Assembly (NCBI RefSeq): GCF_003334765.1
Contig: NZ_QOWT01000145.1
Strand: one strand, 5' to 3'
DNA: 315 nucleotides
Source of the DNA: Escherichia coli
GTDB taxonomy: Bacteria; Pseudomonadota; Gammaproteobacteria; Enterobacterales; Enterobacteriaceae
In this document: positions 1 through 315 of the stretch, piece after piece
Numbering within the stretch: position 1 is the first letter of the stretch
Layout: each line of letters opens with the position of its first letter
Made by a program: the position numbers and the translations under genes
Notes under the pieces: model-generated
Told to the model about the DNA's origin: nothing
The model's input: only the letters and a program-made list of their open reading frames with translations
Databases searched by the model: none

Positions 1-122
1 ACCCCCGCCGATCTCGATTATCTCCGGCAGTTCGACAGGGAGTGTATCGAACGAAATCTCAGTCCAGGCGGCAGTGCCGATTTGCTAATTGTCACCTGGT
101 TTTTAGCGTCCCTAACCGGGCG

Positions 123-134
123 CTGAATCATTAA
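123..134 (+). promoter_or_regulatory. Candidate Cra (FruR) operator-like site, TGAATCATTAAT, in the leader just upstream of the RBS
   Basis: Seen in sequence: gcTGAATCATTAAT; against the Cra consensus as I recall it (TGAAWCSNTHHW, left half GCTGAA most conserved) it matches 11 of 12 positions, with the left half GCTGAA fully present at 121-126. Established knowledge: acnB is reported to be Cra/FruR-regulated. Consensus matching done by eye only. Confidence 0.35.
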
Positions 135-141
135 TATATCC

Positions 142-145
142 GGAG
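142..145 (+). promoter_or_regulatory. Shine-Dalgarno / ribosome-binding site of acnB (GGAG), 6 nt upstream of the ATG
   Basis: Seen in sequence: cGGAGttaactATG, a purine-rich core with canonical spacing to the only start codon in the frame. Confidence 0.8.
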
Positions 146-151
146 TTAACT

Positions 152-315
152 ATGTTAAAAGAATACCGTAAGCATGTAGCTGAGCGTGCCGCTGAGGGGA
201 TTGCGCCCAAACCCCTGGATGCAAACCAAATGGCCGCGCTTGTAGAGCTGCTGAAAAACCCGCCCGCGGGCGAAGAAGAATTCCTGTTAGATCTGTTAAC
301 CAACCGTGTTCCCCC
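152..315 (+). CDS. acnB: Aconitate hydratase B (bifunctional aconitase 2 / 2-methylisocitrate dehydratase), N-terminal fragment; 3' end lies beyond the window (54 complete codons 152-313 plus 2 nt)
   Basis: Seen in sequence: ATG at 152-154 is the only ATG/GTG/TTG in this frame after the in-frame TAA at 113-115; GGAG at 142-145 sits 6 nt upstream; the frame is open to the window end; Leu is mostly CTG, as in enterobacterial coding sequence. Translation MLKEYRKHVAERAAEGIAPKPLDANQMAALVELLKNPPAGEEEFLLDLLTNRVPP matches my recollection of the E. coli AcnB N-terminus (MLEEYRKHVAERAAEGIAPKPL...) at all but residue 3. Recognised from memory, not from a database search. Confidence 0.93.
   Translation, partial: MLKEYRKHVAERAAEGIAPKPLDANQMAALVELLKNPPAGEEEFLLDLLTNRVP

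Follow-up and report, generated by a model that had tools for sequence, protein, structure and literature searches.

A second acnB gene downstream of citG

The window, a 315-nt stretch of Escherichia coli DNA (assembly GCF_003334765.1, contig NZ_QOWT01000145.1), contains the end of a citG gene and the beginning of an acnB gene. Its features are collected in Table 1. The frame opened by the ATG at 152-154 runs to the end of the window and encodes MLKEYRKHVAERAAEGIAPKPLDANQMAALVELLKNPPAGEEEFLLDLLTNRVP, with the N-terminus MLKEYRKHVAERAAEGIAPKPLDANQ of aconitase B. A sequence-only reading of this DNA had taken positions 130-190 to be the ribosome binding site and early coding region of acnB, and this is borne out, as a Shine-Dalgarno (SD) sequence, an ATG and the AcnB frame are all present there. 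The same reading assumed by implication that the gene was the canonical acnB, and this premise does not hold. K-12 acnB has yacH and yacL as neighbours and is preceded by a 354-nt intergenic region; here the gene upstream is citG, the 5' sequence is unrelated to that of the canonical gene, and a second copy of acnB starts 25 nt downstream of a second citG.

Table 1. Features of the 315-nt window (positions count from its first letter; figures with a plus or minus sign count from the acnB start codon)
Feature	Position	Strand	Details
3' end of accessory-operon citG	1..126	+	Frame 1, last 41 codons, stop TGA 124-126; from the translation and the RefSeq annotation of a 100% match
Predicted 10-bp hairpin	102..127 (102-111 / 118-127)	+	Encloses the citG stop codon
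Operon-specific 45-nt joint	108..152	+	citG end, 25-nt intercistronic spacer (127-151), SD and first base of the start codon; similar to neither canonical locus
SD core GGAG	142..145	+	6-nt spacer (TTAACT) to ATG 152-154; kept in the Enterobacter homologue
Equivalent of the canonical RyhB-pairing octamer (-3..+5)	149..156	+	Canonical GUCGUGCU, here ACUAUGUU; site lost
Accessory acnB, first 54 codons	152..315	+	ATG start, Lys3 replacing Glu3; ~98% identity to canonical acnB from 153
Imperfect RyhB complementarity (candidate)	159..189 (+8..+38)	+	RyhB nt 34-68; ~25 bp in 7 helices (3, 5, 1, 5, 3, 3 and 5 bp)

Window positions 1-107 are ~97.5% identical to canonical E. coli citG. In the BLAST comparison the similarity to K-12 citCDEFXGT stops at window position 107 (L001 12107; numbers prefixed with L are positions in the longer stretches compared), and the C-terminus of the protein differs from position 108 onwards (...LASLTGR* vs canonical ...LAQI*). 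In the alignment with K-12, similarity to canonical acnB begins at position 153, the second nucleotide of the start codon, and the K-12 5'UTR gives no alignment upstream of this point. It was considered whether the window could nevertheless be the canonical acnB 5' region carrying the published RyhB site, as would fit the ~98% identity of the coding part (153-315) to the canonical gene. This was refuted by the neighbouring gene, which is citG rather than the yacH intergenic region, and by the 5' sequence upstream of nucleotide 153, which does not align; the GUCGUGCU octamer is also missing from the window. We give this explanation practically no chance.

At least 80% of the window is covered by a match in 35 of 5,426 complete E. 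coli genomes, and in all of them the match is annotated as citG followed by acnB. Identity is 100% across the window in three (E. coli E400634, E500002 and OY754357). The gene in the window is a rare second copy of acnB and not the canonical yacH-acnB-yacL locus.

The citG-acnB joint and the translation start

Among three diverged alleles of the island, the joint at 108-152 carries one synonymous change (C123A) and is otherwise identical. It is also present, in its E. coli type, in three human-gut metagenome contigs, which were the sole matches to the joint pattern in the metagenome scan. An exact 22-mer and a degenerate 27-mer from the joint found no match in 100,044 GTDB representative genomes, and the citG-acnB junction was not found in PLSDB plasmids. 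A homologous joint, CAGGAGTTAATTGTGTTAAAAGAATACCG, is carried by an Enterobacter cluster. The fact that the same joint occurs in this collinear cluster means that it is old and a member of an operon family; judging from these sequences it is neither an assembly artefact nor a recent accident. The hairpin predicted around the citG stop codon is probably incidental: the fold of 100-200 has a z-score of -0.50, with 55 of 200 shuffles folding as well, and one of its stem pairs is broken by C123A in the allele of strain 21AR0173.

In the same fold of 100-200 the GGAG is in the loop of a weak A/U stem, where it is predicted to be accessible. The accessory ATG aligns with the GUG start of the canonical gene. 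The region has the features expected of an SD-dependent start, namely an SD within 5-9 nt upstream, a long conserved open reading frame and a weakly structured context; positions 130-190 are an ordinary SD-led translation start. The canonical E. coli acnB start region (Benjamin & Massé 2014, PMC4150767) precedes the same enzyme (7-8 amino acid differences) and also has a GGAG SD, and the coding sequences are ~96.5-98% identical from the second nucleotide of codon 1 onwards. The two differ in the start codon (GUG in the canonical gene, ATG here), in the spacer (7 nt vs 6 nt) and in the 5' sequence, which is wholly unrelated. Furthermore, canonical acnB has a dedicated 5'UTR of ~95 nt and its own promoter, whereas the accessory gene has neither because its start lies 25 nt after citG.

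Other regulatory signals were looked for around this start. No promoter-like site was found in the window or close upstream, nor a convincing promoter inside citG. The best match to a Fur box in the window was 11/19, equal to the shuffle expectation, with 12/19 in the operon promoter region and 16/19 in the ryhB promoter used as control. An Rfam scan of the window at E<=10 returned two sub-threshold chance matches (CRISPR direct repeat and glmS) and no known cis-regulatory RNA. A terminator-like hairpin with a T-run was seen at 259-274 on the minus strand, inside the acnB coding sequence; one such hit against 0.3 expected is at the level of chance.

The accessory operon and its relatives

The intact module is seen in strains ES1 and 21AR0173. 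It consists of a GntR/HutC-type regulator gene divergent from genes for an Amidohydro_2 lactonase and an MFS transporter, followed by citC-D-E-F-X-G and acnB; the genes are tightly packed and IS elements are located on the flanks (L008 1712-12598; L007 1712-12598). The operon is present in ~33-35 of the 5,426 complete E. coli genomes and is kept whole in 32-33 carriers. Carriers of the island make up ~0.6% of these genomes and come from gut, urinary, animal and environmental isolates. The GntR-lactonase-MFS part was found in 33 genomes, with at least 99.6% identity among carriers. The Amidohydro_2 protein matches PF04909, and among solved structures it is closest to lactonases, putative and true, for 2-pyrone-4,6-dicarboxylate (2ffi, 4i6k and LigI, 4d8l); against 4-sulfomuconolactone hydrolase it scores below the cutoff. 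As judged from its gene content, the operon suggests catabolism of a tricarboxylate-type lactone via citrate. A literature search on the accessory operon found no description of it.

In E400634 only citF'-citX-citG-acnB is found. The genomic island around it also contains kps capsule genes, IS remnants and toxin-antitoxin genes of the CP4 type, and the operon is truncated 41 nt into citF, directly next to CP4-like island genes (JAB domain, YeeU/CbtA; L001 9144-9263). This copy may therefore be without its native promoter, and its transcription uncertain. The citF annotated in this strain has an artificial N-terminal extension, which overlaps the JAB gene on the other strand.

The similarity of the island to the canonical loci is limited to the open reading frames. 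One block begins near nucleotide 10 of citC and ends 10 nt short of the citG stop codon (~97.9% identity); the other begins at the second nucleotide of the acnB start codon and ends 23 nt beyond the acnB stop codon (~96.5% identity; L008 4750-9956 and 10002-12621, respectively, vs K-12 cit and acnB). The island acnB alleles differ among themselves at 39-79 sites (up to 2.9%), mostly synonymous and in mosaic patterns. Since the acnB alleles are mosaic while the genes unique to the operon are nearly identical, the sequences suggest recombination, or gene conversion, between island acnB/cit and the resident canonical copies.

A collinear cluster is present on an Enterobacter sp. chromosome and on a Logan contig, over 8.4 kb at 79% identity. 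Like the E. coli operon, this cluster and a further one in Klebsiella oxytoca have a GntR gene divergent from an Amidohydro_2 (LigI-like) lactonase gene, a transporter and citC-D-E-F-(X)-G. The Enterobacter cluster also shares the citG-acnB joint, but its acnB is reduced to a stub of ~150 nt with a GTG start and an in-frame TAG, beyond which the sequence is unrelated (L010 9091-9240; same in L009). From its sequence this stub is a pseudogene remnant, and it shows acnB to have been in the operon ancestrally. In K. oxytoca a lactonase-CitMHS-citCDEFG-oadGAB cluster adjoins an operon ending in an AcnB paralogue (L011 1-8965), which also contains PrpF, an isocitrate/isopropylmalate dehydrogenase-family gene and two aconitase-family genes besides. 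These genes, oadGAB and the CitMHS transporter set the K. oxytoca arrangement apart, and its AcnB paralogue is only ~72% identical at the nucleotide level. The start region of this paralogue, ACCGUGCU, keeps 6 of the 8 canonical RyhB-pairing bases.

RyhB pairing at the canonical acnB start

Binding of RyhB to the translation-initiation region of canonical acnB has been demonstrated by in-line probing, by inhibition of the 30S toeprint and by repression of an AcnB177-LacZ fusion, the last being lost with the 6-nt RyhB mutant ‘mutstart’ (PMC4150767). At its stop codon, the canonical mRNA further contains UUUAAAAA, a site for RNase E that apo-AcnB shields by binding the neighbouring stem-loop (PMC4150767). 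The earlier statement that acnB is a RyhB target whose decay is countered by apo-AcnB is thus correct for the canonical gene (PMC4150767).

For the predictions, the K-12 RyhB sequence was used (annotated b4451; Rfam RF00057, 83 bits). Interactions were scanned in 26x26-nt windows with opening energies and cross-checked by dimer partition functions, and the energies were compared with those of shuffles and of 92 real start regions, with a stretch of strain 21AR0173 as a source of background starts. Whole-sequence duplex folding yielded uninformative structures (-55 to -63 kcal/mol, with very large loops), and the window scan took its place.

In sodB, RyhB anneals by its core to a stretch spanning the SD and start codon, which keeps the 30S subunit off and brings in RNase E, and this start-codon pairing is the mechanistic template behind the sequence-only proposal for the window. 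The scan recovered the sodB site (-14..+6 with RyhB 38-57) at a total of ~-9.6 kcal/mol; sodB has a perfect 9-bp RyhB seed, AGCAAUGUC:GACAUUGCU, whereas the maximum in 130-190 of the accessory window is 5 bp. For K-12 acnB, -18..+6 was paired with RyhB 32-57 at a hybrid energy of -23.7 and a total of -8.9 kcal/mol, with only 2 of 120 shuffles as good, and the duplex has at its centre 8 uninterrupted bp, GUCGUGCU:AGCACGAC, spanning the GUG start. This canonical duplex is a prediction of the present analysis; as a model it agrees with the published evidence that RyhB binds where translation of acnB is initiated and that the ‘mutstart’ mutant no longer represses. The start regions of E. coli and K. 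pneumoniae acnB are identical bar one base from about -37 to +41 and diverge completely further upstream, so that the canonical RyhB site is constrained where it is present. It should be borne in mind that sodB and canonical acnB themselves rank only in the top 5-10% among the 92 real start regions; such energy scans separate true targets poorly from the background.

Search for RyhB pairing in the accessory start region

It is clear that the canonical pairing sequence is not present in the accessory copy. The RyhB-complementary stretch of canonical acnB, GAGCGAGGAG...GUCGUGCU, is absent, and the complementary sequence GAGCGAGGAGAACCGUCGUGCU is replaced by unrelated sequence. Since the canonical site is located in the 5' part that the two genes do not share, RyhB control could not have been inherited from canonical acnB. 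The hybrid energy in the canonical register falls to -5.8 kcal/mol in the window compared with -23.7 kcal/mol in the canonical gene, and the dimer binding energy of the -40..+7 segment with RyhB is -2.4 compared with -13.2 in K-12.

The sequence-only reading had seen no convincing complementarity to RyhB by eye, with about 5 bp near 179-189. Consistent with this, Watson-Crick runs against RyhB in 130-190 are at most 5 bp long; there are six of this length, among them 185-189 (CGUGC:GCACG), the one noticed by eye. That reading proposed to look for a seed of at least 7 nt over the SD, start codon or first codons; with a longest run of 5 bp, the outcome is negative. The single-stranded core of RyhB (about nt 33-70) has no seed of 6-7 bp or more in 130-190, compared with 8 bp in canonical acnB. 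A run of 6 bp is the maximum in the 315-nt window as a whole, less than the median of 7 for 500 dinucleotide shuffles. When G-U pairs are tolerated, runs of at least 7 are formed only against the RyhB terminator hairpin (nt 75-89) and not against the single-stranded core. Of the suggestion that 130-190 is an iron-responsive, sRNA-regulated start region, the part which stands is that it is the translation-initiation region of an acnB gene; control by RyhB is unsupported, the canonical pairing sequence being absent.

Alternatively, RyhB might repress accessory acnB not at the SD or start codon but through the early coding region, by the imperfect complementarity at 159-189. The predicted duplex does use the single-stranded core of RyhB (nt 34-68), and the CGUGC:GCACG pairing at 185-189 is part of it. 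The dimer ensemble energy of the window from -40 to +40 is -11.0 kcal/mol, and the isolated segment +6..+45 binds at -13.1, compared with -9.0 kcal/mol for K-12. The accessibility-corrected scan places 159-181 (+8..+30) on RyhB 43-68 with a hybrid energy of -15.1 and a total of -6.6 kcal/mol. U175, an island-specific synonymous change (CAC>CAU), adds one pair relative to the canonical gene, and the 5' end of the duplex (+8..+15) is within the five-codon zone where sRNAs can block 30S binding. Yet the greater part of the duplex is downstream of codon 5, its longest helix is 5 bp with no 7-nt seed, and U175 is one of ~85 mostly synonymous differences. Energies as good as these also occur in the background: the scan total is equalled by 12 of 120 shuffles, and the ensemble energy by 10 of 200 shuffles and 11 of the 92 real start regions, so that the score is reached by 5-12% of the background, where true targets themselves are only in the top 5-10%. 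The complementarity is not retained in Enterobacter, where the joint and acnB stub bind RyhB at only -6.1 to -6.7 kcal/mol; the three E. coli island alleles are identical across 159-189 and hence uninformative on its conservation. The duplex at 159-189 is probably fortuitous, and repression through it is in our view improbable. RyhB control through the window is unsupported by the predictions.

Predicted RyhB sites in the cit genes

Two strong duplexes are predicted elsewhere on the operon mRNA. One pairs citG -18..+7 with RyhB 37-60 (hybrid -27 to -28, total ~-13.5 kcal/mol; L001 11221-11245), and the other pairs the 3' end of citF, 13-36 nt upstream of citX, with RyhB 25-50 (hybrid -31.3, total -12 to -13.5 kcal/mol; L001 10677-10700). 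Both sites are found in the canonical (K-12 cit, L005) and the island genes, with totals of ~-12 to -13.7 kcal/mol over the pair, and are stronger than all 120 shuffles and than the sodB and acnB controls. It could be, then, that the operon mRNA is RyhB-responsive through the citF end/citX start and the citG start, with decay or polarity lowering acnB. The strength of both duplexes in both sets of cit genes, ahead of 120 of 120 shuffles, is what speaks for this. However, the sites are within coding sequence, where conservation can be driven by the protein; in the Enterobacter cluster the pairing is weak at both (-16 to -17), and the ES1 allele weakens the citX site to -24.7. No link between RyhB and citrate lyase was found in the searchable literature, and both sites are outside 130-190. 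We regard such indirect control as having a similarly small probability to repression through the early coding region, and if anything a slightly smaller one.

The accessory AcnB protein and the 3' end of its gene

In the source genome the accessory AcnB is an intact protein of 865 aa which scores 1715.8 bits against TIGR00117 (cutoff 1287.2). All three E. coli allele groups have an uninterrupted frame of 865 codons, with 7-8 residues differing from K-12 AcnB (including E3K). The ratio pN/pS is ~0.03, and the Fe-S ligands Cys710, Cys769 and Cys772 are kept. From these sequence comparisons the frame is under purifying selection and the protein looks functional. These observations bear on a further explanation, that the copy is a decaying duplicate without a functional translation start. 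The E400634 operon, which a CP4-like island segment truncates 41 nt into citF and which has pseudogenes around it, would be consistent with decay, as would the Enterobacter acnB, of which only the ~150-nt stub with its in-frame stop is left. Decay does not fit with the intact 865-codon frames in three allele groups, the low pN/pS and the retained Fe-S cysteines, nor with the conserved SD and ATG and the 32-33 carriers that keep the operon whole; this explanation is very unlikely.

At the 3' end, the accessory gene resembles canonical acnB up to 23 nt beyond the stop codon, a stretch that takes in most of the AU-rich cleavage motif of the apo-AcnB/RNase E module. The motif itself is changed from canonical UUUAAAAA to UUUAAGAA, and the stem-loop bound by apo-AcnB is changed from CAGCGCACGCGCUG to CAGUGUGCUG, with a 4-nt deletion. 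At this place (L001 14745-14775, outside the window) no apo-AcnB-protected RNase E site was recognised in the accessory copy. In place of the canonical intrinsic terminator, the accessory copy has unrelated sequence containing a perfect hairpin of 16 bp. This perfect inverted repeat, TAGAACTCCGTCTAGA…, is ~70 nt downstream of accessory acnB (L001 14817-14851), in a region which folds with z = -4.3; from its sequence it might serve as a terminator or mark where a mobile element ends.

Discussion

The window contains the start of a second acnB, the last cistron of an IS-flanked operon. We consider it likely that positions 130-190 are a conventional SD-led start of this accessory gene which is outside RyhB start-codon control. 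Ribosomes that have terminated at the citG stop codon (124-126), or free 30S subunits, would bind the GGAG at 142-145 within the A/U-rich, weakly structured 25-nt spacer and initiate at the ATG at 152. Accessory acnB would then be an SD-dependent internal start on the polycistronic operon mRNA, of which it is the last cistron. Its expression would depend chiefly on how the operon is transcribed, presumably as directed by the divergent GntR/HutC-type regulator, and neither the canonical acnB promoter nor start-codon pairing with RyhB would determine it.

Judging from the sequences at both ends of the gene, accessory AcnB is probably not subject to the RyhB/apo-AcnB iron circuit known from canonical acnB. 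A wider reading may be drawn from this, although we hold it to be unlikely as a whole. It is that the mobile operon gives its host a second, near-canonical AcnB, whose mRNA has lost the start-codon pairing site, the exact RNase E motif and the apo-AcnB stem-loop, and which would hence supply aconitase for an anaerobic route regardless of iron-sparing; the similarity limited to open reading frames would, in the same reading, reflect recurrent gene conversion that is barred from the non-homologous start region. The anaerobic route so proposed could lead from a tricarboxylate lactone (e.g. isocitrate lactone) to isocitrate, from there to citrate, and from citrate to oxaloacetate and acetate.

The combination of lactonase, citrate lyase and aconitase genes points to a so far uncharacterised pathway that degrades a tricarboxylate-type substrate. 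Further, the locus shows that regulation is not transferable by gene name: an acnB coding sequence ~98% identical to the canonical one stands behind a different translation start, and the textbook RyhB/apo-AcnB circuit therefore cannot be assumed for it. If the escape from this circuit is real, carriers could, on induction of the operon, continue to produce an Fe-S aconitase even when starved of iron.
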